A stretch of 60,585 nucleotides of DNA from Chiloscyllium plagiosum (Eukaryota). The stretch lies in the NCBI RefSeq assembly GCF_004010195.1, contig NC_057740.1, positions 10,341,709-10,402,293 on the forward strand. Reading direction: 5' to 3'. The notes beneath the pieces were generated by a model. The model did not search any database, had not been told where the DNA came from, and was given only the letters and a program-made list of their open reading frames with translations. Of the stretch, positions 5,319 to 48,757 are shown in pieces. Every line of letters starts with the position of its first letter. Within the stretch, counting starts at the first letter, position 1. The position numbers and the translations under genes were made by a program.

Positions 5319-8300
5319 GTAAGACATGAAGTCTCGAAAAGTTGGATGGAGGTTATACGTATTCAGGTTCCAGGTTCATCTTCAAACATAAGATGTGCAC
5401 AAACAAATTCCAGAAAAATCAGCAATTGGGAGATGAGTTTTTGTTTCAATCCTTATAAGCTGGAATGCACTTCCAGAAAAGATGGAAGCAGATTCTTTAG
5501 TGGTTAGTACTGGTGCTGTGAGGCACCTGTGAGGACTCAGGTTCAATTCCAGCCTCAGGTGATTGTGTAGAGTTTGCACTTTCTCTTCGTGTCTGCATGG
5601 GTTTCCTCAGGTGTTCTGGCTTCCTCCCGTAGTCCAAAGATATGTAGGTTTGGTGCATTGGCCATGCTAAATTGCCCATAGCGTCCTGGGATGTGCAGGC
5701 GAGGTGGATTAGACATGGGAAATGCAAGGTTATAGGCAGGGTGGGTAGGTCTGGGTGGGATGTTCTTCAGAGGGTCATTGTGGTCTTCTACCACACTGTA
5801 GGGTATCAATGATTCTAGGCGAAAGTGAGGACTGCACATGCTGGAAATCAGAGTCAAGATTAGAGTGGTGCTGGAAAAGCACAGCAGGCTAGTCAGCAAC
5901 TGAGGAGCAGGAAAATCGACATTTCGGGCAATTGTTTTGCCTAAAACATCGATTTTCCTGCTCCTCGGATGCTGCCTGACCTGCTGTGCTTTTCCAGCAC
6001 CACTCTATCTATGATTCTATGATACTTTTCAAACTGGAATTGGAAATAGGAACAGTTGGAAAGTGATGGGGATTAATTAAATAATCCTTTCAGAGGCTGT
6101 TGAAGGAATAAAAGGGCCTGCATCAAGACTGTCAATTTTTAATGTTCAATAATTAGGGTTTCAACACCATTTCAAAACCATCTTTCCAATTTTAAGGGAA
6201 ATGTGGATCTAAGCCAGTTAACTTTCATCATAGACAGAGTTTATTAATTAATCAAGTCACCCTTTTATGTTCACTCAATCAATTATTTAATCAGTGTTCC
6301 CTAATTACCTGCTTAACTACATGTTTATTGACAAAAAGGTCCAATGATCTTCTTCCCATTGCTGAAAATGAGCAATTTTACTGCAAATTTACACTTTATA
6401 AGCAATCTCTTTTAATAAATGAATGAATAGATGGTAAACAAATTACTGATTACTATCCAACATAAAGCAGGAACGTATACATTTAAACTGGTCTTTGATC
6501 AATCTACACAAGTGGTGAATGAGACAATTGTAAGTGGCTGGTTCTCTGTTTTAATGGAAAGGAATTCTAGATCAGTTGGCCAATCATTCTGTAACAATTG
6601 CAATATTCACAGTCATTAATTTATCAAAGGACATTAATTGTCCGCTCAACTGGTTTAATGTGAGAAAAGGACTTCCATGAGCTTTAGTAGGATTGATTTT
6701 GGTTCTTTGAACAGAATTGTTTCCTGATATTTTGTGGTATTTTCCACCTCTACCAGTCTGAGTAAGGGGTATGTTTTGAGGTAGTTCACTGCTGCTAACT
6801 CTCCTTTGTCTTTGCTTTGTCTGGGACCTATCTAGTGATTAGTGGTTGAATTAAGTATCTACAGAAAAGGAACTGTTCTGAGATAACAAGAAATTACTTT
6901 AATTGTGAATCACTTTTCCCTCAGGTATTCCAGGAAACCAACCAATTAATGAGAGAGAAAGTGGGAGACAAAATGTCAAAACTGGCAGATCTCAGTTTAG
7001 AGGAATTGAGTTCTCTTCCAGAGCAGAAGGATTGGCGTGATGATAATTATGTTACAGCCGTGAAGGACCAGGTACCCATTAATTTTCATCATGTCATTTG
7101 TAACCTCACTATACAAACAACCTGTTCAATGACTTTAAATCCTACTAACTGACATGAAATAAAGCAGAATCAGTCTGTTTCACTGGTGGTACCATCCAGT
7201 TGGATGTGATTTTCATTGCTGAGAAGAAATGCAAATGTTAGCATTTTCTTTCTCTCTCCAGGAAATGCTGCCAGTCTCACAGCAGCCTCCAAAATTTTGT
7301 GTCAGTGAAACAATATGTGAAACCTTATTGTTGCCCTTTCAAATTTATTTCTTTGATGGATGTTAGGGCCAAATTGGGAGTTGGTTTAACTCACTTGGCT
7401 CAACAGTTGGTTTGCAAAGCAGTGTAATAACGACAGTTGTGGGCTCAATTCCCAGCAAAGGCTGAGGTTATCATGAAAGACTCTCCTTCTCAATCATGCC
7501 CCTTGCCTGAGGCATGGTGGCCCTCAGGCTAAATCTCCACCAATCATGTTTCTCTAATGAGAGAGCAGCCCCATTACCGAGTCAGACTATGGCAGCTTGA
7601 GGGTCAAATTTGAACCTATGATTTTCTGAAGTGTGTCCTAACACTGGCCGAGAACCTGACTGATTTTTCTCCCTTCCATTATGTCCTATTAATGTGCTGA
7701 TTAGCTCTGTACAGCCAAATCATACGAGAAGCTCTTAAACTGTATGGTCAAATGTTTTGTGTCAGCAGTGTATTTGCTACTCAGCCATTGAAAGCAGAGT
7801 ATTACATAAACATCACAGGCATGTCTTTTGGTGTCTCGCAATAATTCAGTTGCAGAATGAATTGTCCACACTTTGCAATCTTTGGCAACTTCTCCCTGTT
7901 CCACGACCTCTTTTGCCAACAAGGAAAGTAATTCCCAGTATTACAGGAAATCGACCACATCCCACGATCAATGCCATCCTGACATAATTGCCATTTCTTC
8001 CTCACCAGTGAGTAAAAATTGCAGAATACTCAACATCGCCAGGGCTGCACCATCACTAATATGACACCAACAGGTCAAGTAAATCCACAAAACTTACAGA
8101 GGGAATGAAGGAATGAATTTGTCCTTGATAGCATCATTGTCGTATAATTATGTTAATAGTCATAAAATTATGTGATGGGAGAATTTTTACAGCAAATAAG
8201 TATTACAATGAAAAAAATGTTCATATTACATTTGAGACTTCTAATCAAGATATACAGGCAGAAAGAGTAGCTCTGAAGTAAGCAATTTGAGAAACAGACT

Positions 8301-11508: not shown

Positions 11509-11675
11509 CAATATGTGCCTCAAAAAGATACAGTCAACGTGTTGAGGAAGCAGCTTCTGGAAAAACTCTAAGATTTTACTGTTTTGAGGGTAGTGCTTTA
11601 AGGGGTTGTGGAATAAATCTTTTCTGTAGCTAAGTATGATTTCCTGGTGACTCTGTACCATTGAAGTTGAAAAAC

Positions 11676-11686
11676 AATAAAATAAA
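11676..11686 (+). terminator. Polyadenylation signals of gene A (overlapping AATAAA pair)
   Basis: aataaaataaa ~170 nt after the stop, followed by GT-rich ttggtttgtttttgt. Confidence 0.6.
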
Positions 11687-12292: not shown

Positions 12293-12493
12293 CTAAATCA
12301 GAACATAGGAATAGCAATGGGATATTCAGCCTATTGAGCCTGCCTCCTTATTCAGTATGATCATGGTTGTTTGAACACCTCAGTGCCTTTACCCATCCAT
12401 CCCCAGGATTCCTGTATGCCATCGGGATTCAGAAATCTATCAATCTGTACCTTAAACATATTCAGAGATGGAGCTTTCACAGTTCACTGTGGA

Positions 12494-12580
12494 ATCAGCT
12501 GATGAAGGAGCAGTGCTCCAAAAGCGAGTGCTTCCAATTCAACCTGTTGGACTATAACCTGGTGTTGTGATTTTTTAACA
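12494..12580 (+). ncRNA. Minimal hammerhead ribozyme-like motif in a short Penelope-type repeat (mutated copy)
   Basis: CTGATGA 12499-12505, stem II GGAGC-agt-GCTCC, aAAA (G>A), then gcga; family copies on - at ~39108-39210 and ~52066-52160. Confidence 0.55.
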
Positions 12581-13598: not shown

Positions 13599-14249
13599 TG
13601 TTAAAAACCAGGCCAGAGCCCCTCAAAACATTTCAAGAAAGTAGCCCGGGCCCTAACTTTGCTAGTTGTTTGAAGCAGGTGTAATGAGGATATTCCAGGA
13701 GGGATGCAATTGGTCTAACCACTTAGTTTTAAACAAAACAGAATTTATTTACAAGATTACCGAATGAAATACAAACAAAAGAGAACAGAATACTGAATAA
13801 CTTAACCTATCCGAAAACCCAGCAGATCATCCCAACTTATAGCTGCGGTTCCAAATACTTGCAACAATCCCCATAAACACACTTGGCCCAAAAGTTAAAA
13901 TCAAATACAGGGTCTTACAGGAGAGAAGTCAGAGAGAGGAAAGATCAGCATGGGCCTGCTTCTCTTGGGTCCAACAGCTTCAAAAACTGCCTGAATGCCT
14001 TCAATGGATAGCCAAAGAGCCAAACCAAACCAGAGAAAAGCTGGGCTTGGAGAACTGACCACTCCCCTTTCATTGTACAAGTGTTTCTTTCAAACTTAAA
14101 AGCCTTTTGTCTGAGGCAGTATCTGTTAGCTATAATCAAATTGGTTTGAAAACCTTTCAACTTAGACTTTTCGTAGTCTGCGTCTTTTATGACCTCTCTG
14201 AAAAAAAAACAAGGACACATAACCTTGTTAAAGGAATTACATCATCACA
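13599..14249 (-). mobile_element. Solo LTR (651 bp) inserted in a CR1 LINE
   Basis: TG..CA termini, near-perfect 4-bp TSD tact/gact, AATAAA on - at 13744-13749; CR1 sequence is continuous across the insertion. Confidence 0.75.
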
Positions 14250-16643: not shown

Positions 16644-16730
16644 TAATCAACTCCGTGATTCGTTATCAGTGTTGTTTACAGACTTGGATATAGAGAAGAC
16701 AAGCCTGGATGTCTTTAATTATGTTTCCAA

Positions 16731-17417: not shown

Positions 17418-20400
17418 CTAGAAAAGGAAAAATATTTGTTAATATCCAAAACCCAATCTAATCATATCCAAAATTCAGACAGTGAGGATTTTTGTATGCT
17501 TGGTTCTGTAATATTTTTAATTTCTTCATTCGGATTGAATGCATTTTGGTTTTAATTTTAGTAGTGTTATCAGCAGGACATTAGGTTCATTTTAGAAAGA
17601 ATTTACTTCTGGAGATTTACAATTCCATCGAGACAAATTATTAGAATAATTGCAGCAAATGGGAGAGACAACATATAGAATCATTATGCATGGAAGCAGG
17701 TCATTCAGCCCATTGAGTTCACACTGACCCTCCAAAGAACATCCCACCTAGACCCAACCTTATTTCTATAACCCTGCATAGTCCATGGCCAACATAACTT
17801 GCACATCTTTAGACTGTGGGAGGAAACCAGAGTACCCAAAGGAAACCCACACAAATATAGAGAGAATGTGCTAACTCCACACAGGCCATCACCCAAGGCT
17901 GGAATTGAACCCAGGTCCTTGGTGCTAACCACTGAGCCACCATGCTGCCCCCTGAAAACTCATGAGATGGCCTCCAGTTCCAAGAGTAGCTTCCCTTCCA
18001 GATTGATTATTGAATGAAAAGTCTATCAGCTGCCATAGTGGCATTTGAGACCATTCCCCAAAACCATTAGCCCAGAGGCCTGGGTTATTAGTCTAGAAAG
18101 ATTCCCACTATGCCACCTTGTCCCTTGTATACTCTTACACAAAAGGTTAGTTTTGAGACAATGAGGAGTTATTACGTGCAGTGCATAGCAGTTTGTAACT
18201 ATCATGCAAGGATGAGTTTCAAAGTGTACAGCAGATGATCTGAAAAATAGATTTCTTTATTAATTCATTCACAGGATGTGGGTGTCAGTGACTAGGCCAG
18301 CATTTATTGCTAATTTCCCACTGTGCAGAAGACTGTTGAGAGTCAACCACACTGCTGTTCATCTGGATTCAGATGTAAGTCAATCCAGGCAAGAACTGCA
18401 GTTTCCTTCCTTAACATCAGGGATTACAATGGCATTTTCACCAAGCAATCAGTTTCTTGATCATCATTAGACTTTTAATTCCAGACTTTGTTGAATTCAA
18501 ATCCCAACATCTGCCACGGTGAAATTTAAACCTGGCTTCCTAGAATATTATCTGTGTCTCTGGATTAATAGTCTAGCAGTAACACTACTTGGCCATCATC
18601 TGCCTTTTGGATCCTGTGAAGTGGGATAGTATGTTCAGGCAAGGTGGAAACAATGATTGACAGCTGGGACAGAGCAGTTCTCCATAATCAGTGTAAGGGA
18701 AAGGATCAAAGATCAGCTTTGTCTCTAATCTTTAAATCAACTTAAGGTAGCCAGGGAAACAGAGGTTTCACTTACTACTCGGCAAAAATGAGATAGAGTG
18801 GTTGCAGCTGAAGGAATAAGCTTTTACAATTATTATACTCTCACAAACTATAAGTGCCAGGCAGTTGACTTGACTGCTATATAATCAAAGAGATTTAGCT
18901 ATCCCACATTTATCCATAAGGTGGCGACAGGAAGTAAATGAATCACTTTGAAAGAATTGTGTTGTATTCAATTACATCTTGATATAACGAGCTTCACTTA
19001 CATAATCGTAAATGCTTTAGGAGGTTCTGCTTATGTGTTCGCTTCTTAATGCTTCCTTTTTCCATTTGATAATTAAATAATGTCTGTGCCAGCATCAGTA
19101 TCAATACTTCATAGGGTAACAAAGATTTCCATCCTGCCTGCTTTTCTTAAATTCTTAATTTGTAGATATAGTTACCTGTTTTTAATGATCCAGTAGCTGC
19201 TTGAAGGTGCATCCACATATCCTATCAAGACCACGGCATGATCAACTCTCTTATTATTGCAGTCAGCATCATCAAAGATACCTGTAAAATGGAGGATAGC
19301 TGAAATAAACGCATAGACGCCAGTAATCTGTCACCAAGTCACCCTTTATTTACATGTGCACAGTACACTGGCTATAGCCAGCCAGTTTGGAGTCAGTCTC
19401 TTGAACTAAAGAGATCTGGTTATTTTTTTTTTCTTTTTTCTCCTTATCCCCACACTACCGCCTAACTGCGATAGTGCTTATAGGTTTTCCCAGCATCCAT
19501 GTTGTGTGAGAGTGAAGGTGTGAGACACAGTGAAAGACAACAGGTATACAAATCTTTATTCAATTTCCACTACCAGGAAGAAAGGAAACACCAGGGTGGT
19601 CAGTGACAAGCAGTGCCCTTCTCAGAGGGTATTGCTGCCGAATCAAACAGTGAAGGGGTTAAATCAAAGTAGAGTTGGAGAGGGAAATAAAGCACTCCAC
19701 TCCACTCCCTGCGGTGCTACCTCTCCCTGAGCAGCTCGAGGGTGTTGGTGAACACCGCATGCCCCTTCTCCAGAGACACTCAGGCTCGGACGTAGCCGGG
19801 GAAAAGGGGCAGGCAATCGGCCCTAACGACCCCCTCCACGGCCCGCTGCCTGGACCTATTTATGGCCAGGTTGGCCAGGCTCAGGAGCAGACCCACGAAG
19901 TGATTCCCCTGGTTTTTTGGTCAGCCAGGGCTTTCCTGATTGGAGGAGAAAGTGAGGGCTGCAGATGCTGGAGATCCGAGCTGAAAATGTGTCACTGGAA
20001 AAGCGCAGCAGGCCAGGCAGCATCCAAGGAACAGGAGAATCGACCGTTTCGGGCATTAGCCCTTCCTGAAGAAGGGCTTATGCCCGAAACGTTGATTCTC
20101 CTGTTCCTCTTTCCTGATTGGCCCAGGTTAACAATCCCAATCAATGACTTTTTATAGTCAACCGCCTGGTTCCAATCACTCCAGTAGCATTGTAAATGAA
20201 AACAATTTCGAACTATAGTTCTGCCTTCCTATTCTTGGATAATAACAAGCAAGCAAGGTTTGAAAGGCAGACCTACAAGATTTTGCATTCTCATAGCATC
20301 TTTCACCAAGCAACTTGTCCCAGAACCATTAAACAAAAAGCATTTGCAAAAGGTGACTAGACTGATCAAAAGAGAAAATTTGATTTTAAAAAAATTACTT

Positions 20401-23400
20401 CAAAAGACAGACGTATCAAAGTGAAAATATTCAAGAATTCAATTACAAGGTGTTGTGTCTGCAAATTGTGCATGAAGGTGATGTAATATCCAATTGTTCC
20501 CCATCTTGCACAGTGAGATTGAGAGATTAATTCTGAACCATGGTGAATTTTCTTTAATAAAGCAAACAGAAATTGCTGGAGAAACTCAGCAGGTCTCATA
20601 GCATCTTGGAGAAAGAAACAGAGTTAATGTTTCAGCTCTTCTTCAGATCTGAAGAAAGGTGACTGGGCTCGTAACATTGACTCTGCTTTCTCTCCAAAGA
20701 TGCTGCCAGACCTCCAGTAATTTCTGTTTTTGTTTCAGATTTACAGCATCAACAGTTCTTCATTCCACTTTAGAATTTTCTTTACCTGACTTGTAAAATC
20801 TCCAGGAATTAAGTGACGAATAAACAAGTACAGAAATTGGTCCAACACGTGCCACTAATGCAGCTAATCTTTTCTCATCAATATGCTTATACCTTTGGAA
20901 TCCTTTAATTGTGACGACGCTTTTAGCGCTACTGAAAGAGCACTGATCATTTCGCTGTAATTAAAATGAGAATCTGTTTAGCAACTTGGCAGACAAGAAT
21001 TGTCAATAAATGTCAACATCATATCACATACAAAATCCCACATATCTATGAGCTCCCAGCATCACTGTCCTCCAATACCTCTGAACACGTTCTCCATCAC
21101 TCAGTGCTGGTATGTCCCTGTGCCCTTTTCACCCAGCATGTACTGGCAGACTCATCTGGCCCAACCCCTCTACTTTCGCTTTCTAAATTTCTTTGCTTTG
21201 CTACATTCCTCCAACTTCAGAAACCACATTAAGACCCACCTTTCCATTAGCTCATTACATCCAAAATCACAAATCACATTCCAATTCAGACGTGACTCCA
21301 AACTGCTGAATTGTTTGAAATTTTTATTCATTGAACATCTCTGTGGTGCATGACAGAGAGCCACAGGCTAATCTCTGTTTCTTTATTTCTCTTTTCTCTT
21401 ATCCAGCAGTGGTCTCACAAATAACTGAGCGACTTTCCCACCACCAAAATCATCATGACTTTTATTTTTCACTGACAGGCTAATTTCTACTCTGCATTAA
21501 GTTAATTAGTCTCAGCTAGGATAGTATTTGAAAGTGCTGCAGATGCCCAGTAGAAATTTAGTCAATGCTTCCAACCCTGGTCATTATTGACAATCCCTAC
21601 TAGATGGTTTTCTATTGATATTGAATAAGGGAAGTATCAAGCTCAAATATAACACTGGCATTGAGGTCCCAATTAATTAACACTAAACATGATTGATGGA
21701 TGTCTTCAACGGGTTAGCATTTCCCAGTTGATGATTTACATATATTTGGTGGAAGGATCATTCAAATGTGATATAATTCAAAAATAGGGATAGACCAGCA
21801 GCATGGACAAGGAAAGATTTAGTCCAATGATACACTTGAATGAAGGACATTCTTTCTGCTAATAATCAAAATGACATTTGCTTGGCACTACGCATGAAAA
21901 TACTCAGATTCAGGTGACTTCTGTGTTTGCAAAGGTTCAATGAAATTGTTCCTTAAACCAGAATATCTTTCAGAACTCATAATTGACAGTCAAGTTATAT
22001 TGTATGAAATAGAGAGAATATCAGGCAGAAGATGTACCTTTGCTTGGTAGGGGTACGATTGATCAGATTCAATGCCGTATTTTTTAATGTATTTAAAGGC
22101 ACGATATGGTAAACCTCCATCGCACCCATAATTCTTAAATTCATCGGAACAGTCAATGATGTTTTGCGTGCTCAGATCCACATACTGTTTCTTTTGCTTG
22201 GCCAACTGACCTTCCACAGCTCCAACTGCAGCAAACGCATAACAGGACAAACATGAACCCTGCAGACAGAGCAGATAAATCGCCAAATGTGAAAAACACT
22301 TACAGATGTTTATTCATGATCCTCTTCACTTTGATTGAAAGAGAATCCAAATAGTTAACCAGACCTTTGCCTTGACTGTAATTGCCAACAGATGTGAACA
22401 GGCCTGGAATGTATTCATGCAAAATATTCAGTTCGAGATCAACCACTGCCACAACCTTACCCCTTCCACTTTTGGATGCCTAAATGGCACAGCATCATAT
22501 TTCAGTCCCTCACAATGTCATTTCAAGATGGCAGCATAGCTTAAGAATCAAAAACTTGATGAATTAGAGTATGCAGTGAGAAAGAGGAAGGGGGATAATC
22601 ATGAGCAGCTGGTGAGAATTGGCAGTAAAACATACACAACCTCAGGATTTGTTAATAGTGGAGTAGGGTCTATGAGCAGGCAAGTTTTACTGAACGTGTA
22701 CTGAACATAGACCTCTACTGGAGCACAATTTTGGGCACTACACTTTAGGAAGGGTGACACTGTTGCGTCATAGCACCAAGAACCTAGGCTCGATACCAAT
22801 CCTGGGTGACTGTATGGAGTTTGCTTGTTCTTCCTGTTCTGTGTGGGTTTCCACTGGGTGCTCTGGCTTCTTCCCACAGTCCAAAGATGTGCAAGTTTAT
22901 GTGGATTAGCCATGCTAAATTGGCCATAATGTCTGGGCGTGTGCAAAATAGGTGGATTAGCCATGGTAAGTGTGGGTATAGGGTTGGGGAGGATGTTCTT
23001 CGGCAGGTCAGTGCAGACTCAATGGGCTGAGTGGCCTGTATCTTCACTCAAGGGATTCTATGAATGCAAATATGTTGGAGGAAGTACAGAAGGAGTTTAC
23101 ATGAAATACGCCCACTGCCTTCTCTGCCCCCACTGACCCTCTCCTTGCAACCCAAGCTTCTAGCCCTTCTCCCTTGGTGCCCAGTCATTCCCTACCCAAG
23201 AAACCCTAGACTCAGCTTGTCCAGCAAAAAAATGCTCCTTGGTGGTCCTCCTTCCATTTCCAGCCCTATGCAATCTGATTGGCTGGCAGTTCTCAAGGAC
23301 AGGATTTCCTCTCAGTGGGGGCTGCCTCAATAAGCACATTGGTGCTGCAGGCCAGCATCGGAGTCATGGCATTGTTCCCATTTAGGGCCCTCTTGTAGCA

Positions 23401-26400: not shown

Positions 26401-29400
26401 TCCTGGGTGTGCATCTTGGACTATATATAATGGGAACAGAAGGAGCAACTTGTAAGAATAGCTGCAAGAGGAAGTAATCACCCAAACAAATGGAATAGAC
26501 TTCCTGGAGTGATTGACGGGGCAATATCTTTGAAACTACGAATGATTAATGGGACTAGCAACTCGAATTAATGGGAGCAACATGCAGATGCTTGAATGTA
26601 TGCGGTCATCCCCATAGATGCAGAGGACCATGGAGCTGCTCTCCCATTAGAGAGAGATTACTGGTGGTGAGGTTAACCTGAGGGTCACCCTGTCTCAAGC
26701 AAGGAGCGAAGTGAGGAAAGCAGGCCCTCAGTGGTCATTTTAGTCAGAATGGGAATTGAACCCACGTGATTGGCATCACTCTTCATCGCAAACCAGCCAG
26801 CCAAGCTAACAGACTTCCATGTAGGAGCAAATTACTGCAGATGCTGGAATCGGTACTGAAAACAACAAATGCTGGACATCACAGTAGGTCAGACAGCATC
26901 CATGGAGAGAGGGCAAGCTAATGTTTCAAGTCTAGATGACTCTTCATCTGAGCTTCACACAGACCTCCGTGTGTGTGTGTGTGTGTTGGGGTGGGGCGGT
27001 ACAAAAAGACTGCTAAAAGATTACTGAGTCGTCCTGAATTGTGAGCCTTGCCCTACAACAGCTGAAGAACGCTGTGGCAAAAGTGACTGTATTCTGGTAT
27101 AGTTTAAGATTATGCCTAGGACTGAAGGTCAACTGAATACAGTTGAAACACCTATCCTCAGACAGACGCATTGTGAGAAGTGGGATCAGGAAACTGAGCT
27201 GGACTGTAAGATTCAATGGAAGCAGAAAATGGTTCAAATAGCATGCACAGGGAAGACCAGTATCAAAAGCAAAACTGGATGAAAGACAGAGTCTAGGAAA
27301 TGTGGAGACTGGGGTAAAATGAGAATGGATATAAGATAACGATGTATATCAAGATCTAACAGTGATGTTAGCAGTCATGTGCAAGAGACTGTGAAGAAGG
27401 GATGGAATAGTCTGTGCTAATGTGAAATGTGCTTACAGAGAACAGTATTATCCACAATGGTGTCAATAAAACTTTGCAGAAACCTCAAATCAGACAACAG
27501 TCATTCATATGTAAGGGGAGACAGTTATAGGTTCCAAGCTACTAGAGGAGACAAGGTCAGCACTTAATACACAGAGCCACAAGACTCATGGAATCAAACC
27601 ATAGATCATGGGCAAAATATGAGCTGTTATTAAGGGCAATTAAGAATGAATGTCAAATGCTGGCCATGTTGGTGACTTCTACATCCCATGAAAGAAAAGT
27701 AAAGTTCTGCTGGACAACATGAGTCATAGTTAAAAACAAGATAATGGCAACAGGAAAACTGTTCAGAAGGGCTGAAATAGGAAATAGGAAATAGGATTTG
27801 GATAGCAGGAACTATTGCAAAAACAAATCCACTATTTGAAGCAGAAAGATGAGATAAGTAACATTAAAGCCACTGAAATGTATCATAAAAGTCTCATCAT
27901 GGCACAATTTCAAATGATCAAGGAGTGGAAAATATTACAAACTGTTTCTTTCTTGGTTTAAAAATAAAAGGAAGTATTTGATAAGGCAGTGATCAAAAAG
28001 CTGAAAGTGTTAATGGAATAGATGGGGTGCCTGATGGATGAATGCCAAGAACGAGCTCTTTTTTATTTAAATAAAGAAACGCAAGTGCTTCCTGGGGATC
28101 TTGAACATTGTTGGCAGAACATTTATTTTTCCAAAAAGCATATAGGGGCAACCCAAAAATTACAAGCCCGAGAATATAATATCTGTTTTAGATAAAGTAT
28201 TAAATGACATACTGACTGAGGAGATCATGAAAGAATTGTATCATAATGATGAAGGAGCTAGTGGACAATTCATGGCACAACATCCTTGATTATTAAAATT
28301 TGTGGAGATTTTAATGGAAGTGAATATATATTCAGTGAAAGTGAACTATTTTTGGTGCTTAGCAAGATTTTTGATAGCAGGCCACACAAAATAAAAATTA
28401 TAATACAAGACAAGCTACTGAGGTGAATTGGCAATTTGCTAAATTGAAAATCCATTGATTAAAAATGGAGATATGTTGAGATATACAATTCTGGGTGCAA
28501 TATTGCAGTAAGAGAAACAAGGCATTGAAAACTGCAGAAAGTGGAAGACAAACAATTCAGTACATTCAAATGTTAAAGCTCTCAGATCAAAGAACAAAGA
28601 AAATTACAGCACAGGAACAGGCCCTTCGGCCTTCCAAGCCTGCATCGATCCAGATCCTCCATCTAAACCTGTCGCCTAGTTTCCAAGGATCTATATCTGT
28701 CAGCTCCCTGCCCATTCATGTATCTGTCTAGAAACATCTTAAATGATGCTATAGTGCCCGCCTCTACCACCTCCATTGGCAATGTATTCCAGACATCCAC
28801 CACCCTCTGCATAAAAAACTTTCCACGCATACTCCCTTAAACTTTTACCTCTCATCTTGAACTCGTGATTTCCAGTAATTGAGTCCCCCACTCTGGGAAA
28901 AATCTTCTTGTCATCCACCTTGTCTATACCTCTCATGATTTTGTAGATGTCAAACAGGTCCCCTCTCAATTCCATCTCTCTAATGAAAATAATCCAAATC
29001 CACTCAACCTCTCTTTATAGCTAATGCCCTCCATATCAGGCAACATCCTGGTGAACCTCCTCAGCACCCTCTCCAAAGCATCCACATCCTTTTGGTAATG
29101 TGGTGGCAAGAACTGTATGCAGTATTCCAAATGTGGCCGAACCAAAGTATTATACAACTGTAACATGGCCTGCCAACTCTTGTACTCAATATCCCGTCTG
29201 ATGAAGAAAGCATGCCATATGCCTTCTTGACCACACTATTGACTGCCTTCAGGGTACAATGGACCTGAACACCCAGATCTCTCTGTCCATCAATTTTCCA
29301 CAGGGCTTTTCCATTCACCGTATAGTTCACTCTAGGATTGGATCTTCCAAAATGTATCACCTTACATTTGCCCATATTGAATTCCAGCTGCCATTTCTCT

Positions 29401-35441: not shown

Positions 35442-35967
35442 TTCTTAGAAGTTGCAAAGTGAACTAATTCCACCAATTAGTTCAAGGCCCTGAAGACCTA
35501 GTATTATCTTTATCCCTTTTGATCTAAACTATTTGTCCACCTGTTAGTTCCAACCATCAGTTACACAAACCTCAGGCAATGCACCACATGATCTTAATGA
35601 TAGAGTCTGAAAAGGTAATGAAATGTTGTGAATCTTATTTTCATGAGGCAGATTATTGATTTCTTTGCGGGAAATTAGATTTTCTATTGAGGATCCTTGG
35701 TAATGCATTTTTGTCATGGTGCCTTCTTGCCCCAGGAGTGCATCTGTGGCAATTGCCCAATTTCCACTCCCATCAGCAGATTAGATTTTTCAGCTAATAG
35801 TTGTGTATGGATGATGCAATCATTGACAACCCATAATGACACATGCACCAGAAACATCTTCACACCAGGACTGCATCATCAGCTCATTACTTGTGGACCA
35901 GCACCAGGGTTACCCAGCTCGCTGTATTCCTGGTGCATAGCATCTTCTTTCACAACATTGTTCTCGT

Positions 35968-36100
35968 CATTCCTGAAGAAGGGCTTATGCCCGAAACGTC
36001 GATTCTCCTGTTCCCTGGATGCTGCCTGACCTGCTGCGTTTTTCCAGCAACACATTTTCAGCTCTGATCTCCAGCATCTGCAGACCTCACTTTCTCCTCA
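35968..36100 (+). ncRNA. Penelope-type short element beginning with an intact minimal hammerhead core
   Basis: CTGAAGA (35973-35979), a, GGGC-ttat-GCCC, GAAA, CGTC (palindromic ACGT stem III; predicted cleavage after C36000); stem I is weak. Confidence 0.6.
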
Positions 36101-36542
36101 AAGATGGATACAATCTTCGCCAACCCTGTGTCCTGATGAAGCTACGAAACTGCTTTCTTCTCACAGATGCTGCCAGACTTGATATCTCCAGCAGTTTCTG
36201 TTTTTGTTTCAGATCTCCAGCGTCTACAGTTCTTTGCTTGACTTCCATGTTGTGAGAACGCGGGCAAATCTCAGCTCAGAGGTGTATATATTTCAGGGTC
36301 TCTCCAGCTCTGGATGTTTCTGTGTTTTTCCATCTGGAGACATAAGCACACAAGAAAAAATAAAATGCTGCAATGGTGGTAGCATTGTCTATTTGATCAA
36401 ATATTAAACCATGGCCTCATTTGTCTTCCCATGGCACTATTTTGAAAAATGCATGAGCACAATTACAGGGGACACATGTGAAACACACTAAACTGGCTGC
36501 ATTTAATCTACCATTTCATTCAAAAACTATAAAACCAGATAT

Positions 36543-38080: not shown

Positions 38081-41000
38081 CTGTTCAACACCCTCTCAGG
38101 GCTCAACCATTAGCTGTTATTAATCATTCTGGTCTCAAGTTTTACTCTTGCAATAAATGCCTTCCCCCTTCTTTTAAATGTATTACCTATGTTTGAGTGC
38201 GTGTTTGATACTGTGTTTCATTATTCTTTCTTGAGATTGGTAGACAACAACATTCCTATTCTTTTCATTCACAAAACATTGGGTTGTTTTTCTTTGATTG
38301 GATCTAGTTAACTGAGTTTTAATAGAAATGTAATAGCTGCATGTTTAAAAAATAAAAAACATGCTTGTTCAAACTTACAAAATGGGAGTGGAAAAGAGAG
38401 GAACTGATTGTTCCTCCTAACCTGTTCATAACATCAAATATTGCAAAGGCCCATACTCTGGTGCTCATTGAAGACAATGTTTGACTGGAATCTCTTGGAT
38501 TCTATTGGTATAACTACAGCATGAGGACAAAATCACACTGTCAAGGAATTTTAGACATAATTGTAAAGATTCCATGTTTAATTTTGTGTTTTTAAAATCT
38601 GTGGACTGAAATTAGCAAGCTTTATTTTTAAAAAGTGTTTAAAAGGGTGGCCATATGATTTGAAAGCCAGTAACTAATAGTCATCATGTCAAGCATCATG
38701 TACGCAACTGTTTGAACAAGCAATAATTGAAGTTTCAGTTGCATATGATTTAAAGCCAAGTGGGTACAGTATATACATGTAGCTTTTGCTGGTAACAAGA
38801 AGTTCATTGGTCTGTATGCTAGTGATCCCCAGTCATCAATGACAGAGACATTGTTTGCCTGGCAAACTGATTGATGCTCAGGTAACTGACAGCTTGGAGC
38901 TGGGAAGTTACAGAGACAGAGAGGTGTTCATTTCTCACCAGCTCTGGAACAGTCTCTCTCTGTCACTGTGGACATGAAGTAAACCAATTTATCTTTCCTG
39001 CAAAAGTTGTTGGAAGCAATGAGTTTAATAACTAAGTCAAAGACTTCTTAAAAAGGAACCAGCCATCTTGTGTATTTTACCAACCAGTGGACACATCTGG
39101 AGAAATATGATGTGGAGGAGTCAGGGTTGGACTGAGGTGGACAAATTTAAAACTCACACAACATCAGGTTATAGTTCAACAAGTTTATTTGGAAGCACCA
39201 TCTTTCGGAAAGTTGGACTGAAGGATCTGTTTCATGCTGTACATCTCGATGACTCTATAACTGTTTGCCTGTAGTGGCAGTCTAATTATTATTATTATTA
39301 GTATGGAAACCTGGTCTACCTAAAAGTCTGGTAAATTGAACAATTTCGCATAAATTTTAAGATCTTTAACTTCAGTGACAATTCGGGAAGAGTATCACTT
39401 GACTTCTAGTGCCTTACCCCTGTAAGTCATGTCAAAACTGATTTTAAAAAATATGGTGCTCAAAGCTAGACTCAGTAGTGATAACTATCACACTATTATT
39501 GATTGCTGCAAAATCTCAACTGGTTCTTTAATTCCTTGTAAAGAAGGAAATTGTCCTTCATTTTCTGATCTGGCCGATATGTGACTCCACAACAATGTGG
39601 TTTATTATTAACTGCACTCTGAAATGGTCCAGCAAGCCACTCAGGTCAAGGACAATAAGGATAGGCAACAAATGCCTATGATACCCACCTCCCATGAAAA
39701 AGGCTTTAACAAGAATTGTAACCAATAGCCCAAATTACAAACTTTGTTGAATGAGTTTGAGTTCTTGAACCAGCTGCAATTTGTTCTGACATCGTATTTT
39801 TAATTTTGTAAAAGCAAAATCCGTCACCCTATCATACCAAAAGAGAAACTGGATGATATGTAAAACTGTAGGAAAAAAAAATCAATGATTAGTACCTTTT
39901 ATATAACCTGCAGCATTTAGCAACATTCAATAATTACAATGAAATTAGACTTTGCTAATTAATACGTATAGAATATTGGTGTAGGAGTTATGTCCATCAT
40001 CCAATGATGGAATGTCAAACATAGCACAGGATTACAAAAGTTATGTAATGCAAATGGAGGCCATTCAGCCCATCATCTCTGCACCAACTCTCCAAATGAC
40101 TAATTCACATTCATTCTCCTGCTTCTCCCTGTAACTCTACATGTTGTTCCTTTTTTGGGTAATGGCCCAATTGCATTTTGCCTGCAGAATTTTCCAGTTA
40201 CTGCCTACTCCAACATTTCTCCCATCCACTCAATGGTTCCAACACTAATTTTCTATTCAATTAATCTCTTAAAATTCATTTCACTTGGTGTCTAACAATC
40301 TCTGATTGAAAATGAGCCCATAGTGCTCCTTGGTCTGCTCTGCATCTGCAATAATCTCTACAAATCCTCAGCTTTAAATGCCCAAATCTATGATCTTGTA
40401 CAAAAACAGTAGTGCAGGACAAACTCAACAGGTCTGGCATCATCTGTAAGCGAAAATCAAAGTTGATGTTTCGAGTCCAGTGACCCATTGTCGGAACACT
40501 ACAATCTTGCCTTTCTTATCCACATCTGAGAGTTCAATCACCATTTTAGGCATCAACCCCACTTCAATCTAAATAACTGTAACACAATTTACTGCATCAT
40601 CTCAATGTGTTTGAGTATTTGGATCTTGACTTAGCAGTGTTCAAACCTCCGAAGAAAAATGATTGGAAATGAACAACAGATTGATTGGGGAAGAAGGAAT
40701 TGGTTAACTCTTCATGATGCTAATCTAGTTAGCCTACGTGCTTACCATAGCATCGAATAATTGACACAGGATACCCTTGATCCCTTAGGTTAAAATATCC
40801 ATAACTAATGCAATTTGCATGCCTAATTTCACTGGTTATCTGCCAATAGGGATCATAGGCAAGTCTGGCAATAAGAATGATGTGTGTTTCATAAATTTAA
40901 CTTGGCATTCCACAGTTCTTTGAGAAATTGGAGCAATACTTTAATACACATTTCTTTCATCCTGGGCATTGGAATTATGTAAACCATTTTATACCAAGTC

Positions 41001-41522: not shown

Positions 41523-42212
41523 AAACGGAAACAGAAATTGCTGGAAAAACACAACAGAGAGAGCGCAGGGTTAACATTTTGAGTCCAGTGATCGTTCTTC
41601 AGAACAGACTGTAGGGAGGAAAAGTTTGGTACATGTGCTGAAGGCGGAGTAAGAGGTGGGAGAAGGAATAAATGACGAGCGTAAATGGAGCCCAGATAGA
41701 GAGAAAATTACTGGGCAGACAAAGGAATAGGTAAAGGCTAGTCTGGGAGAATGGGTAGCTGCTAACAGGGATTATTAGTAGCTGACAATAGGTCATTTGA
41801 GGTAGCAGCTCATGTGATGACAAGGCCTGGTGTGTGGGATATGGGGTAAAGGAGATGGGAAAAGATGTGCAGGCTCTAAAACTTTTGAACTCAAAATTGA
41901 GTCCAGAAGGTTCCCAAGTGAAAAATGAGATGCTGTTCTTCCATTGTCAGCTACTAATTGCCCCCATGACCAGCTATTCATTCCTTGGGCTGTCCAACTG
42001 TTTTTTCCCTCTCTCTGGGCTCCTTTTCCTGCCATTGTTTGTTCCTTCACCTTTACTCCCACCCTTCTTTTGCATAAAAAAAATCCTTAGCCTGGCTACA
42101 ATCAGTTCTGAAGAAGGGTTGATGGACCTGAAACATTAACTCTCCTTTCTGTTCACCAATGCCATTACACATGAGGTGTTTTCCAGCAATTTCTGCTCTT
42201 GGTTCTGTTTTC
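41523..42212. mobile_element. Non-autonomous Penelope-type element with inverted termini, each carrying a hammerhead-like motif
   Basis: Arms acagaaattgctggaaaaaca / tgttttccagcaatttctg; + motif agtt-CTGAAGA..GAAA-catt-aact at 42104-42141; - motif at ~41570-41604. Confidence 0.65.
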
Positions 42213-42807: not shown

Positions 42808-43130
42808 GTGTGGCACTTTGCCTCAGTGGTTAGCAGTGCTGCCTCACAGTGCCACGATCCCAGGTTCGATTCCAGCCTCGGCAACTGCCTGTGTGGAGTT
42901 TGCACAATCTCCCTATGTGAGCGGGGGTTTCCTCCAGGTGCTCCAGTTTCCTCCCACAATCCAAAGATGTGCAGGTCAGGTAAATTGGACATGCTAAATT
43001 GTCCATAGAGTTCAGGGATGTGTAGGTTAGATGCATTAATCATGAGTAAATGTGGAGTAATCGGCTAGGGGAATGGGTCTAGGTAAGTTATTCTTTGGAG
43101 CGTCAGTGTGGACTTGTTGGGTCGAAGAGT
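42808..43130 (+). mobile_element. HE1-type SINE
   Basis: HE1 head cagtggttagcagtgctgcctcacag..ggttcgattcc and body. Confidence 0.85.
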
Positions 43131-44174: not shown

Positions 44175-45000
44175 TGTGGATACATTTCCCTCCCCACCCT
44201 TTTCCGCCTTCCGCAAAGACCGTTCCCTCCGTGACTACCTGGTCAGGTCCACGCCCCCCTACAACCCACCCTCCCGTCCTGGCACCTTCCCCTGCCACCG
44301 CAGGAATTGCAAAACCTGCGCCCACACCTCCTCTCACACCTCCATCCAAAGCCCTGAAGGAGCCTTCCACATCCATCAAAGTTTTACTTGCACATCTACT
44401 AATATCATTTATTGTATCTATTGCTCCCGATGTGGTCTCCTCTACATTGGGGAGACTGGATGCCTCCTACCAGAGCGCTTTAGGGAACATCTCTGGGACA
44501 CCCGCACTAATCAACCACACCACCCTGTGGCCCAACATTTCAACTCCCCCTCCCACTCTGCCGAGGACATGGAGGTCCTGGGCCTCCTTCACCGCCGCTC
44601 CCTCACCACCAGATGCCTGGAGGAAGACCGCCTCATCTTCCGCCTCGGAACACTTCAACTCCAGGGTATCAATGTGGACTTCACCAGTTTCCTCATTTCC
44701 CCTTCCCCCACCTCATCCTAGTTTCAAACTTCCAGCTCAGCACTGCCCCCATGACTTGTCCTCCCTGCCGATCTTCTTTTCCACCTATCCACTCCACCTT
44801 CCTCCCTGACCTATCACCTTCCTCCCCTCCCCCACTCACCTATTGTACTCTCTGCTACTTTCTCCCCACCCCCACCTTCCTCTCATTTATCTCTCCACCC
44901 TTCAGGCTCTCTACCTGTATTCCTGATGAAGGGCTTTTGCCCGAAACTGCTCCTCAGATGCTGCCTGAACTGCCGTGCTTTTCCAGCACCACTAATCCAG
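44175..45000 (+). mobile_element. Penelope-like element 3' fragment: GIY-YIG endonuclease ORF remnant plus pseudo-LTR with hammerhead core
   Basis: ORF 44176-44721 C..C..C..FTCTSTNIIYCIYCSRCGLLYIGET..ERFREH..VAQHFN..LGTL..GIN; CTGATGA-a-GGGC-tttt-GCCC-GAAAC at 44923-44947. Confidence 0.9.
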
Positions 45001-45026
45001 AAAGAAGCCTAAAAACCTATGGTGAA

Positions 45027-45340
45027 GATGATGGTCTGGTGGTATGATCACTGGACTGATATTCTAGAAACCCAGGTAATGTTCTGGGGAATGGAGTTTG
45101 ACTCCCACTGTGATAGATGGTAGAATTTGAATCCAATTTAAAAATCTGGAATCTAGCATCTAACTATGACCATGAATCCATTGTTGATTGTCATTTGGTT
45201 TACTAACGCCCTTTAGGGACAGAAATTGCCATCCTTACCTGGTCTGACCTATATGTGACTCCAGAACCACATGTTATTGACTATTAACTGCCCTCTGGGC
45301 AATTAGGAATGGGCAACACATTCACACCAAGCTAACAAAG
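45027..45340 (+). mobile_element. tRNA-derived SINE, third family
   Basis: tRNA-like head tggtctggtggtatgatcactggact..gagtttgactccc; body shared with 18255-18605. Confidence 0.6.
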
Positions 45341-45504
45341 CCCTAATTCTGCTAAAGAATAAAAGGTATCACGAGGGTCATGGATAGGATGAATAGTCAA
45401 GGTCTTTTCCCCAGGGTAGGGAAGTCCAATACTCAAAGGCATAAGTTTAAGGTGAGAGGGGAAAGATTTAAAAGGGATCTAAGGAGCAACTTTATCACGC
45501 AGAG

Positions 45505-45962
45505 CTGGAAGAACACAGCAAGCCCAGGCAGTGTTAGAAGGCGGAGTAGTCAACATTTCAGGTGTAATCTGTCTTCAGGAGTAGGGGTGGGTGTAAGGGG
45601 AGCTGCAGATAAAGGAGAGAGGGGCAGTACAGTGAGGTGGGGATAGGTTCACACAGATGGAGGGTACGAATTGGTTGGTCGACAGGAGGACAGAATCTGG
45701 TTGATGGAACTGAATTCATCCTTCCCATCGACAAATCAAGTTGAATCCTCTACCTGTGTCCAGCTATTCCCACCTCACCATCCTCCACCCCCTCCCCCAT
45801 CCTCCTTTATCTGCAGCTCCCCTTGCACCCACCCCTAGTCCTGAAGACGGGTTACACCCAAAACGTTGACTTCTCCACCTCCTGATGCTCCCTGGCTTGC
45901 TGTGTTCTTCCAGTCTCCTGCTTGTCTACCTTGGATTCCAGCATCTGCAGTTTTTGTTTGCT
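45505..45962. mobile_element. Non-autonomous Penelope-type element with inverted hammerhead-bearing termini
   Basis: ctggaagaacacagcaagcc / ggcttgctgtgttcttccag; + motif agtc-CTGAAGA-c-GGGT-tac-ACCC-aAAA-cgtt-gact at 45837-45871; - copy at ~45546-45582. Confidence 0.7.
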
Positions 45963-46154
45963 GCTAGAGGAAGTGGTGGAGGCTGGGACAATTACAACAT
46001 TTAAAAGGTATCTGGGTGGGTATGAAAATTGGAAGGGTTTGTAAGGAAATAGGCCAAATGATGGCAAATGGGATTAGATTAATTTAGGATACCTGGTCAG
46101 AATGGATGAGTTGGACCGAAGTTTTCTGTGTTGTTCATCCCTATGACTCTGTAT

Positions 46155-48757
46155 AGACCACCTGGTAGCAGCTCAGGAGAACTAGCTTGTATAAATGCTG
46201 AAACTGGGCAACCAAGTAACAAAGACAGAGTAATGCTAATGTGGGATTTTAATCTTAATATAGACAGGAGGAGACAAAAAACACTTGCCAGAAAGATTGC
46301 AAATTTCTAGAGTGTGTCCAGGATAGTTTCCTATATCAATATGTCTTGGATGATACAAGAGGACAAGCAATATTGGAGCTAGTAATGAATCTTAGAGAAT
46401 TCAACACTTACAATCCTTACAGTGTAGAAACAGGCCATTCAGCCCAAGAAGTCTACACTAACCCTCTGAACATCATCTCACCCACACTCAACCCTCCCAC
46501 GTTCCCTATCCATGTAACCCCATATTTCCCATGGCTAATGCACCTAACTACACATCCCTGAACACTATGGCTAAGTTAGTATGGCCAATCCAGATAACTT
46601 GCACATCTTTGGACTAATGAGCAATGACCCTGATTTAATTGGTGAACTAGTTGTTCATGAGAATTTATTAAATAGTGATCATAACATGATTGAGTTTCAT
46701 ATACTGCTTATAAAAGATAAACAACAATTAGATACCAGAATTTTGAATTTATATAAGCCAAAATTTAACAGGAGCTCTGTTAATGGATAAAACAAGCAAG
46801 AAACAATGGATGGTTTTGAATGAATGAAAAGCTCCACCTCACAAAAAAAAGGTCATGGGCATCTAAGGAGGTATGGGTCAGCATAAAGTTAAATGAAAGG
46901 GCTTATAAAAATGCAAAGAACCATACAGATCTCACAGAATGGGACAAATATAAAAAACAACAAAAGAACACAAAGCTGCTTATAGGAGCAGCGGATAAGG
47001 ATTATGAAAGGAAACTTGCAAAGGACAATTAGAAGAAACTCTACAGTTATATCAAGGAAAAACAGCTGGTTAAGAATACAATTAGCCCGCTGAACGCTGA
47101 GGGTGGAGATATTGTCAATGACCCATGCGGGAAATGGCAAACATGCTAAACAATTATTTTTCTTGAGTATTCACAGCAGAAAAGGAGGATAGCTTTGCCA
47201 AAAGTCCCAAAACAATTAACAGAGAATCATGGACAAGGACTAAATAAAATTAGCTAAAGTAAAACACCAATAATGGGGAAATTAATGGAACTAAAGAGTG
47301 ATAAATCCCCTGGACCTGATGGTTTCCATCTATGGGTATTAAAGGAGGTTGGAGAGCACATTGCTGATACCCTAGCCATAATCTTTCAAAGTTCCCTGGA
47401 TTCAGGAATTGCACCTCGGGATTAGAAATTGTCACACCACTTTTAAAGAAAGGTGATAGGAGAAACGCAGGGAATTCCAGACTAGTTAGCCTAACATCTG
47501 TGGTGGAGAAATTGTTGGAACTATAATTAGGGATAGAAAAACTGATCATCTCAAAGAATTTCAATTAATCAGGAAGACTGCAAATCCTGGAGATCAGAGT
47601 CGAAAAATGTGGTGCTGGCAAAGCACAACTGGTCAGGCAGCATCCGAGGAGCAGGAGAGTCAATGTTTCGAGCATAAGCTCTTCAACAGGAATGTTTTGT
47701 GGCCAGCTGTGCTTTGCCAGCGCCACATCCTTCAATAATGGGTAAGTACTCAAATGGGCAGGACGTAGCTAGTGGTGTCCCGCAGTGATCTGTGTTGAGA
47801 CCTCATGTACTCACAATACTCACAAACAACTTGGATTAACAAGTCCAATACCCAAATTACTCAAAATTGGAACCATTGTATATACTGTTGACGACAGTAT
47901 AAAATTGCAGCAGGATGTTAATAGGTTAGGTGAATGGGAAAAGCAGTAGCAGATGGATTTTAATATATGCCAGTGAGAGATGGTCCTTTTCATACTGGAA
48001 AAGCATAGATCAGGATATTTTTTTAAAACAATGTTAATTACAGTGAATGTCCAATGGGATTTGGGTGTTCAGGTGCATAGCTCTTTAACATGCCTTGAAC
48101 AGTTGCAGAAGATAGTCAAGGCAACTAATAAAATGCTGACTCTCATATCTAAAGGGCTGCAGTGTGAGGATGCAGACATTATGCTGCAGTTACACAAAAC
48201 CCTAGTTAGACCCCACTGGGAGTGCTGTGAGCAGATCTGGGCACCATATCTTAGGAAGGATGTTTTGACCCTGGAGGCAGTTCACCAAGATTTACAAAGA
48301 TGATACTTGCACTGCCGGGGTTAGGTTATTAGAGAGATTACAAGAATTTGGCCTTTATTCTCTAGAATTTGGAAAGTTAAGGGGTGATTTAATCAAGGTT
48401 TACAAGTTACTAGCAGGGAAAGACAGAATAGATTAAGCTAAACTTCACTGATTGAAATTTTCAGAAACTGGGGAAGAGTCTAAGAATTAAGGCCAGGCCA
48501 TTCAGGAGCGATGTTAGAAAGCATTTCTACACTGAAAGAACATTGGAGGTTTAAAACTCTCTTCCTCAAGCAGCAGGCAATGCTAATTCAATTGTAAAGC
48601 ATAAATCTAAGATAGACAAACTTTTATTAGACAATGGAATCAAGGGATATGGGCCCAAGGCAGGCATATGGAGGTGCCACAGGTCAGTCATGATCGTATC
48701 AAATGGCACAGCAGGTTCAAGGGGCTAAATGGCCTACTCATGTTCCTATATTCCTAA
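46155..48757 (+). mobile_element. Old CR1 LINE (endonuclease, linker and RT to 3' tail) with nested HE1 (~46400-46615) and Penelope-type (~47570-47730) insertions
   Basis: YRPP, DFN, NSDHNMIEF, KSPGPDG, LVRPHWECC; tail cctactcatgttcctatattccta. Confidence 0.8.

Follow-up and report, generated by a model that had tools for sequence, protein, structure and literature searches.

Minimal hammerhead ribozymes have been described in the pseudo-LTRs (pLTRs) of metazoan Penelope-like elements (PLEs), where they are of type I with a short stem I, an extra base before stem II, a G10.1-C11.1 pair and palindromic positions 15.2/16.2; several families occur per genome, mostly as single motifs of truncated PLEs with some opposite-strand pairs (Cervera and de la Pena, 2014, PMC4209133). 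Neptune-type endonuclease-bearing (EN+) PLEs combine a reverse transcriptase (RT), a zinc-finger-like linker and a C-terminal two-cysteine GIY-YIG endonuclease, and display 5' truncation, partial tandems, inverted 5' copies and, on one side only, a tail of 30-40 bp (Craig et al., 2021, PMC8557442); in the same report the start site of Penelope and Chlamys lies within the pLTR. For the Poseidon PLE of Anolis carolinensis, target-primed reverse transcription was demonstrated in vitro to begin inside the RNA, at two starts behind the hammerhead that give an optional tail; uncleaved RNA was the substrate, and no RNA reads ended at the cut (Frangieh et al., 2024, PMC11167929). Non-LTR retrozymes, which are non-coding, hammerhead-bearing and derived from PLE pLTRs, form head-to-tail tandem arrays and occur in a cartilaginous fish (Li et al., 2026, bioRxiv 10.64898/2026.07.22.740005). 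The role of the hammerhead in PLEs is described as open (PMC8557442, PMC11167929). These accounts, and the comparisons below, are limited to the accessible parts of the four sources.

The DNA analysed here, referred to as the window, is a stretch of 60,585 nucleotides from Chiloscyllium plagiosum. Its repeats share the listed features of the minimal hammerheads and of the Neptune-type elements, the two internal starts with optional tail of Poseidon, and the non-coding, pLTR-derived character of the retrozymes; unlike the retrozyme arrays, they are dispersed solo units and head-to-head pairs, with one two-unit tandem pair (118-nt period) at another locus, L035. None of the six tandem repeats in the window was a head-to-tail hammerhead array. 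A tail-based inventory yielded 19 arms. Positions within elements are counted from C3 of the hammerhead (0), the predicted cut lying at +27/28, and the features of the window are as follows.

5828..6007, both strands: family A2 head-to-head pair, minus arm +14..+117 and plus arm +12..+84, joined within stem II, without the CUGANGA core
12493..12575, plus: family P stub spanning -6..+78, whose hammerhead (12499) has stem II GGAGC/GCTCC, G12 to A and a damaged stem III (family majority AGCT)
19944..20108, both strands: family B head-to-head pair, minus arm to +125 and plus arm to +42, joined at the hammerhead core; plus-arm motif at 20066; 13-bp target duplication
20564..20735, both strands: family C head-to-head pair, core at 20649 decayed
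26816..26955, minus: family C3 stub beginning at -5, with its hammerhead at 26950, stem II GAGTC/GACTT, 5-bp stem I aagct/agctt, U4 to A
35964..36098, plus: family B solo stub (-9..+125) with the best hammerhead in the window (core 35973-35979, stem II 35981-35992, GAAA 35993-35996, palindrome ACGT 35996-35999, C17 36000)
36154..36209, plus: family C tail fragment (+38..+97), without hammerhead
39109..39209, minus: family P stub (+18..+118), without core
40388..40497, minus: decayed family C stub (-3..+107)
41975..42195, plus: family C copy that retains 3' UTR sequence (-133..+88); its hammerhead at 42108 has stem I agtt/aact and a broken palindrome (ACAT)
44179..44721, plus: family A PLE ORF, 3' end only (RT thumb end, CxxxxCxxC linker, GIY-YIG endonuclease), 5'-truncated, within a CR1/L2-like repeat
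44722..45002, plus: family A 3' UTR and pLTR, hammerhead at 44923 with stem III and the stem I 3' strand deleted, tail end at +90
45505..45965, both strands: family D inverted pair, minus arm 45505-45663 separated by 77 nt from plus arm 45741-45965, with the motif at 45841, stem I agtc/gact, stem II GGGT/ACCC, G12 to A
47573..47694, minus: B-like stub (-5..+115), motif at 47689, stem II GAGC/GCTC, A6 to T, 84% to the B reference
52069..52154, minus: family P tail (+33..+118), without hammerhead
55448..55565, minus: family B stub (+8..+124), starting at stem II, beyond the range of an earlier sequence-only reading of this DNA

That sequence-only reading had proposed several PLE pLTR families with minimal type I hammerheads and covarying stems, and this was borne out. 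Motifs were recovered at all the places it cited, with stem II GGGC/GCCC at 20066, 35973 and 44923 and its other stem I and stem II variants as listed above; the repeat it placed at 5819, by contrast, is the coreless A2 pair. The hammerhead descriptor matched 63 times in 571,261 random genome bases and 3, 5 and 2 times in three block shuffles. Extrapolation from 24 intact-looking motifs in 631 kb gives ~10^5 genome-wide, against at most ~9,000 per genome in PMC4209133. Pairs were counted by script, as the MAFFT alignment had family P out of register. In the majority strands of eight families stem I paired at 29/32 positions (family-permutation p 0.0004) and stem II at 32/32 of the first four pairs, G10.1-C11.1 included (p 0.0003); the families share kinship, so that pairings are not independent events, and with six non-sister families p was 0.003 for each stem.

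The expected core (CUGANGA ... GAAA ... UH) was present in the majority sequence of six of the eight families; the majority of family E has G12 to A (six copies, split) and that of C3 rests on two copies. Stem I has 4-5 bp in B2, C, C3, D and E and 3 bp in P, whereas in A and B, the two commonest families, it reads ATTC/GATT and its third pair is a U-U mismatch (2 bp, U-U, 1 bp), and their predicted minimum-energy fold differs from the hammerhead fold. This mismatch, and a stem II of 4-5 bp in most families, distinguish the present motifs from those of PMC4209133. GAGC/GCTC was found in two copies only (47689 and locus L071). The ACGT palindrome ascribed to stem III holds for six families, but P has AGCT and both C3 copies have ACAT. 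Position 36000, named earlier as the cut site, is indeed C17 of the best copy. Most copies are mutated, as had been noted: of 11 window copies aligned without gaps, only 35973 and 20066 keep the core, stem II, the palindrome and the first two stem I pairs. An Rfam scan of the window (E<=10) gave 11 matches, none of them a hammerhead, the minimal motifs being without the modelled stems; its plant miRNA matches were long palindromes only. Judged by sequence, the motifs are minimal type I hammerheads of PLE pLTRs, mostly decayed. From the literature, their cleavage would probably be only weak and occur in dimers paired through ACGU or AGCU, perhaps aided by protein.

A PLE endonuclease was located upstream of copies in seven of the eight families (A, B, B2, C, D, P and E; E-values 1e-53 to 0.008), and none was found among the C3 copies checked. 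Because of this linkage the short copies, on sequence grounds, are 5'-truncated ends of autonomous PLEs of at least seven families, in a known arrangement. The GIY-YIG domain of the window ORF scored below the Pfam cut-off (E 0.0014; 19.8 against 22.6) and Pfam named no RT; this endonuclease had 148,119 first-look candidates genome-wide, of which 150 were scored. The earlier claim of a ribozyme directly after this ORF holds as far as the motif at 44923 lies downstream, but it begins 201 nt past the end of the frame and is partly deleted. The CxxxxCxxC linker was present in A and P and partly in B, and absent from the aligned part of E. By this linker families A, B and P are of Neptune/Nematis type and only E looks Poseidon-like, the choice between Neptune and Nematis resting on the linker motif and on Neptune being the vertebrate clade. 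At locus L039 two hammerheads 3,383 nt apart flank an RT, CxxxxCxxC and GIY-YIG frame, with an assembly gap and a frame break inside. No intact full-length ORF was present among 10 long candidates, whose long 'open frames' proved to be assembly gaps. The element has the architecture pLTR-ORF-pLTR, in which the ~125 nt behind the hammerhead are also the ORF start. By extrapolation the insertions number ~0.9 million and make up ~4% of the genome; for Naiads a much lower 37,000 copies are quoted (PMC8557442).

The stubs are units of ~95 or ~130 bp, inserted solo or as head-to-head pairs, and their 3' ends cluster at +81..+97 and +118..+127. Of 65 pairs, 52 combined one long and one short arm, two were long-long and none short-short, which is the 'tail' pattern of PMC11167929. 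Target duplications of 7-18 bp surrounded 31/39 pairs, and in 23 pairs the two arms matched each other at 96.8% and other copies at 89%. The MITE-like look noted earlier is real in that head-to-head arms carry target duplications; the arms, however, are 3' ends of PLEs that differ in length and meet at variable junctions, and the 5' truncation, inverted 5' copy and optional 30-40 bp tail are those of EN+ PLEs. The short arm extended further 5' than the long arm in 30/55 pairs (13 the reverse, 12 ambiguous or equal), and is therefore not a plain copy of it. Loop flipping inside palindromes is another possible reason for which arm reaches further.

The sequence-only reading had taken these repeats for separate non-autonomous families. 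In that case short masters (about -4..+125) would themselves be transcribed and then copied in trans by the PLE enzyme, as SINEs are. Two young subfamilies are indeed mostly short (21/22 and 12/13 copies), stubs have target duplications, the L035 tandem pair exists and tandem non-autonomous PLE derivatives are described in the accessible part of bioRxiv 10.64898/2026.07.22.740005. A long form, however, exists for 10/10 tail variants tested (nine in one count, the tenth among endonuclease-selected loci), families that are unrelated share the same boundary, the stubs yielded no sequence specific to them, and the anole PLE template requires ORF sequence ~55-60 nt past the mapped starts (PMC11167929, in part), which the stubs lack. 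Such masters are considered unlikely, though conceivable for the two young subfamilies, and the label of separate non-autonomous families is not supported. The stubs are instead probably direct products of the PLE enzyme, the 3' ends of at least seven autonomous hammerhead-bearing PLE families.

The 5' ends of the stubs were mapped on arms at least 88% alike, with a target duplication or an inverted arm at the junction, which limits artefacts of subfamily divergence, although these may still inflate the counts for families C and D. Of 101 young B/B2 arms, 69 began at -10..+9, nine stopped at +10..+33 (five of them at +27..+33) and 13 lay beyond -11. The bin -10..+9 also held 18/36 B/B2 solo stubs, 27/56 P arms and 17/39 A arms; its stop rate was 0.072 per nt, against 0.0024 and 0.0076 on the flanking sides. 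Genome-wide counts, made by pattern, dropped steeply at the same place, from 69,159 exact matches at -3 to 53,979 at -4 and 39,018 at -5. The boundary is a cluster of 20 nt rather than a single base, with its peak at -3/-4. An intron acceptor was rejected as the boundary, because the ends span 20 nt and an upstream exon in common was not seen. A literature search (titles and abstracts, few subscription papers) returned nothing on an accumulation of 5' ends at the hammerhead of PLEs, or on PLEs copying the cap; supplements, which fell outside it, could already list shark motifs (Cervera 2014, Lunse). No 5'-end mapping was found in the accessible text of PMC4209133, nor a 5' boundary at the hammerhead in that of PMC11167929.

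The usual start of a stub is the front edge of the hammerhead and not the cut site, so self-cleavage appears not to be what makes the stubs. Their 5' ends lie 20-35 nt upstream of the cut with the catalytic core kept, whereas +28 would be the first position in a copy of the cleaved 3' product; the stubs therefore do not look ribozyme-processed, contrary to what had been supposed. That they are reverse transcripts of cleaved RNA, either the linear 3' product or a circle monomer, is very improbable. A small bump near the cut (the five B arms, and 17/338 starts over all families) and the conservation of core and stems across families would fit such an origin, but in most stubs the core, which lies upstream of the cut, is still there, internal deletions account for some of the boundaries near the cut, and cleavage is dispensable for insertion in vitro (PMC11167929, in part). 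The RNA run likewise had no ends at the cut, though a polyA single-cell library is not expected to show them.

These data suggest with high probability that an element of pLTR-ORF-pLTR form, its ORF starting within the ~125 nt behind the hammerhead, is reverse transcribed by target priming inside the RNA, at ~+90 or ~+125 (seen as the two 3' ends), and that synthesis mostly ends at -10..+9 on an uncleaved template. The stop could reflect an RNA 5' end located at stem I's front edge, in the simplest case the capped pLTR start site, off which the enzyme would run; this is rated at somewhat short of an even chance. One such cDNA would give a solo stub, and two, one per start and per nicked strand, could be joined by microhomology into a head-to-head pair. 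Any role of the hammerhead would then lie in making long copies, by cutting or circularising tandem RNA, and not stubs.

With the same autonomous parents, the boundary might instead be a stall or fold-back point rather than an RNA end: the enzyme would pause once past a folded or protein-bound hammerhead, and the cDNA end would pair with its own near-palindromic core (TTC/GAA, CAGG/CCTG) and so prime itself. Self-priming has been proposed for PLE palindromes (PMC3846280), junctions recur identically, paired arms share private variants, C precedes 14/16 junctions at -3 (nearly all inverted pairs) and 4/20 G junctions are the same hairpin with a 3-nt loop. Solo stubs, however, cluster likewise, few stops occur at +10..+33, the stretch in which the stems are first encountered by the enzyme, and neither arm contains the other in 30/55 pairs. 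A stall of this kind is regarded as doubtful.

The bases at the junction bear on the run-off reading. G preceded -4 in 13,677 of 21,900 purine junctions (62%, against a background of 35-41%); at -5 there were 3,148 purine junctions, and G was again in excess (56 of the first 100 listed, by eye), so -4 is not singled out by the excess. Twenty junctions were read singly (G only): three were clearly untemplated, four came from the target, eight were readable from the inverted arm and five were ambiguous. Four of the five listed contig joints entering at -4..-10 carried one extra G matching neither reference side. The top-listed 5' loose end was -4 both in the RNA run (133 reads) and in the contig set (47 contigs). 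Against run-off, no RNA 5' end was seen: in the RNA reads (polyA single-cell library, ~2% sampled) 97% continued into unrelated sequence, both directions were present and no pile-up of molecule starts or ends was listed. A tentative reading, itself on the unlikely side, is that stubs are integrated run-off cDNAs of capped PLE RNA 5' ends, the target-primed counterpart of retroviral strong-stop DNA. Transcription would start at ~-4 in the stem I 5' strand, where A, B, C and D have a pyrimidine-A-pyrimidine initiator-like word; the enzyme would start 95-130 nt downstream and copy the cap as an extra G, and palindromes would arise from two such cDNAs of a dimer. Reading stem III as a downstream promoter element (motif from PMC2377424) gave 5/8 matching letters by eye and was dropped.

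The repeats described here, though they resemble SINEs or MITEs, are PLE ends, amounting to ~4% of sampled bases, and should be annotated with this in mind. The link between ribozyme and PLE was already known; the fresh clue is that stubs start at the front edge of the ribozyme. With ~1 million insertions whose junctions can be counted, the common product appears to come from uncleaved RNA and to stop at that edge, and the question of what the hammerhead does reduces to two, the position at which PLE RNA starts and the ability of the enzyme to read through the ribozyme. If the strong-stop-like origin were true, long copies would have to arise by tandem read-through, by a template jump or through a circle that the ribozyme makes, and some hundred thousand junctions would preserve, like fossils, the start sites of PLEs and would directly test the purpose of the hammerhead.

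All the hammerhead motifs cited in the sequence-only reading were found at their places in the window, and by every testable feature the motif is the minimal hammerhead of Penelope-like elements (PLEs) described by Cervera and de la Pena (PMC4209133), with cleavage assigned by analogy. No matching hammerhead model was found in Rfam for the window motifs. In families A and B, with C3 of the hammerhead core counted as 0, +27 and +28 would flank the predicted cut (36000/36001 in the copy at 35973). A relaxed descriptor gave 63 matches in 571,261 bases (60 tiles of ten kb, placed at round coordinates on large scaffolds), compared with 3, 5 and 2 in shuffled sequence, and clustering on the sequence 3' of the motif yielded eight groups: A, B, B2, C, C3, D, P and E.

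The claim that the stems covary was borne out, as the family majority strands paired in 32/32 cases for stem II and 29/32 for stem I, both sides changing. Permuting partners among families gave p 0.0003-0.003. With related families and seeds picked by eye, this shows the structure and does not count events. Stem II is GGGC/GCCC in A and B, with loops TTTT and TTAT respectively; the first stem I pair is C-G, T-A or A-T and the stem III palindrome ACGT or AGCT, depending on family. In both main families, A and B, the third pair of stem I is a U-U mismatch, and their minimum-energy fold differs from the hammerhead shape. Most copies are mutated, as had been noted, only 24 of 106 motif-aligned copies in the tiles and window retaining core, stem II, palindrome and two stem I pairs; extrapolation gives ~10^5 such intact-looking motifs genome-wide. 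The motif at 44923 does lie behind a GIY-YIG frame, but a deletion has removed its stem III, and the repeat at 5819 lacks the core altogether. Two old copies, at 47689 (-) and at L071:1521 (+) elsewhere in the genome, have a common stem II GAG../..CTC and GACT behind H17, and are perhaps, from their sequence, an older subfamily with paired stem I.

tRNA-like SINEs and CR1/L2-like pieces also abound in the window, and we take them to resemble cartilaginous-fish repeats. The features located were:

8450-8680 (+): papain-family cysteine protease exon (Pfam Peptidase_C1, E 7.6e-28)
14592, 33288, 37067, 42811 (+), and inverted near 10954, 17789, 52942: tRNA-like SINE family, several copies decayed
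29061-29633 (-), 30255-30620 (-), 53549-53929 (+), 58180-58746 (+): LINE reverse-transcriptase-end-like frames, presumably CR1/L2-type
31081-31421: 170-bp duplication
53952-54844: run of 893 N
60179-60585 (window end): GC-rich tandem repeats, periods 35/70 and 124 (two identical units)

Introns of the protease gene may contain some repeats. A family A PLE piece (44179-45002) lies within a CR1/L2-like repeat.

The GIY-YIG frame of the window gave 148,119 first-look candidates in the 3.56 Gb genome, of which the 150 scored were 85-100% identical, and in most of 30 loci fetched a family A hammerhead lay ~200 nt 3' of the frame. Endonuclease matches were also found upstream of copies of B, B2, C, D, P and E; a search upstream of C3 copies found none. 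At L039, a locus outside the window, the architecture is pseudo-LTR-ORF-pseudo-LTR, encoding reverse transcriptase, a CxxxxCxxC linker and GIY-YIG, with a gap and a frame break inside; the frame continues across hammerhead and tail. This linker places A, B and P, on sequence, with Neptune/Nematis as defined in PMC8557442; family E looks Poseidon-like. Exact tail words of 22-23 letters occurred 82,938 (B-type) and 47,819 (P) times, the reversed controls 0 times. The tiles held 174 arms (single PLE tails), or about 140 insertions and 4.2% of bases, extrapolating to about 0.9 million insertions genome-wide. In public DNA contigs, stubs (short copies) are joined to the element's own N-terminal ORF at L039:2018-2539, as would be expected if PLEs insert into themselves.

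The stubs had been read as non-autonomous; long copies, extending upstream of the hammerhead, exist for 10/10 tail variants tested, although two young variants are >90% short. The best reading of the stubs is therefore that they are ends of autonomous elements, an idea that PMC4209133 had already put forward for single motifs. Short master copies have some room as the source of the two young variants, in which 21/22 and 12/13 copies are short. The stubs are neither retrozyme arrays nor MITEs, and are not a shown SINE. At L035:2434-2552 (-), outside the window, a CA microsatellite adjoins a retrozyme-like dimer of family B hammerhead units, arranged head to tail and 118 nt apart.

The 5' starts were placed for 101 B/B2 arms that matched the reference at 88% or better, taken from tiles, window and loci chosen by tail patterns and excluding any that abutted a locus edge or gap. 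Of these, 69 fell at -10..+9, five at +27..+33 and 13 beyond -11. The tiles and window alone gave 24/31 in -10..+9, and the cluster recurred in P (27/56 arms) and A/A2 (17/39). The stop rate per base was 0.072 within it, 0.0024 downstream and 0.0076 upstream. Exact B words numbered 69,159 genome-wide from -3, 53,979 from -4 and 39,018 from -5, whereas purine junctions at -5 numbered only 3,148. The top-listed 5' loose end in public data aligned on L039 was at -4 (133 reads in an RNA run, 47 contigs in a contig set); these are copies set within other sequence and do not mark ends of RNA.

The stubs had further been called ribozyme-processed. cDNA of a cleaved 3' product would begin at +28 without the core, which most stubs retain, so the template RNA was uncleaved. 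This agrees with the anole PLE, whose catalytic mutants inserted normally (PMC11167929). For hammerhead dimers, published work alone attests cleavage (review PMC6765202), which is weak in vitro.

Target duplications of 7-18 bp surrounded 31/39 head-to-head pairs (two inverted arms), a few short ones possibly by chance, and also many solos, so that the short copies are insertion units, not deletion leftovers. The 3' ends formed two groups, at about +81..+97 and +118..+127. Among 65 pairs, 52 combined a long and a short arm, two were long-long, none short-short, and 11 had one arm in neither group; these groups and pairings match the two internal start sites and optional tail reported for the anole PLE in vitro (PMC11167929). 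In 23 pairs the two arms were 96.8% alike, compared with 89% between an arm and other copies, indicating that both came from one master. At L183 and L187, also outside the window, the stub is preceded by short stretches of the target or of the element's start that had been copied again, as if the polymerase had slipped several times.

The stub boundary is most likely the 5' end of the PLE RNA. Reverse transcription would run off at this end of the uncleaved, perhaps capped, RNA to give the stub start, and a copied cap would leave one extra G at the junction. Transcription of PLEs starts within the pseudo-LTR, according to PMC2377424 and PMC8557442. In families A, B, C and D a pyrimidine-A-pyrimidine word surrounds A-4, which is itself a stem I base. 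This word presumably resembles the initiator consensus. G preceded -4 at 13,677/21,900 purine junctions (62%, background 35-41%), and one extra G fitting neither side was present in 4/5 listed contig joints entering at -4..-10. Cap copying adds such a G in LINE-1. The excess is not confined to -4, since 56 of the first 100 junctions listed at -5 had G by eye count. Twenty G junctions (no A junctions) read singly comprised three clearly untemplated, four target-derived, eight readable from the inverted arm and five ambiguous. RNA reads aligned on L039 (polyA single-cell library, ~2% read) showed no site where many molecules start or stop.

The main rival has the enzyme stall and the cDNA fold back at the near-palindromic core, and this accounts for the recurrent -3 junctions. 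It fits less well with the solos, 18/36 of which start within the cluster, and with the short arm extending further 5' than the long arm in 30/55 pairs, an arrangement that loop flipping could also yield. Three results are added here: the step at -3/-4 across the genome, the excess of G and the pairing of long with short arms. Together they point to run-off at the 5' end of RNA that was uncleaved and perhaps capped.
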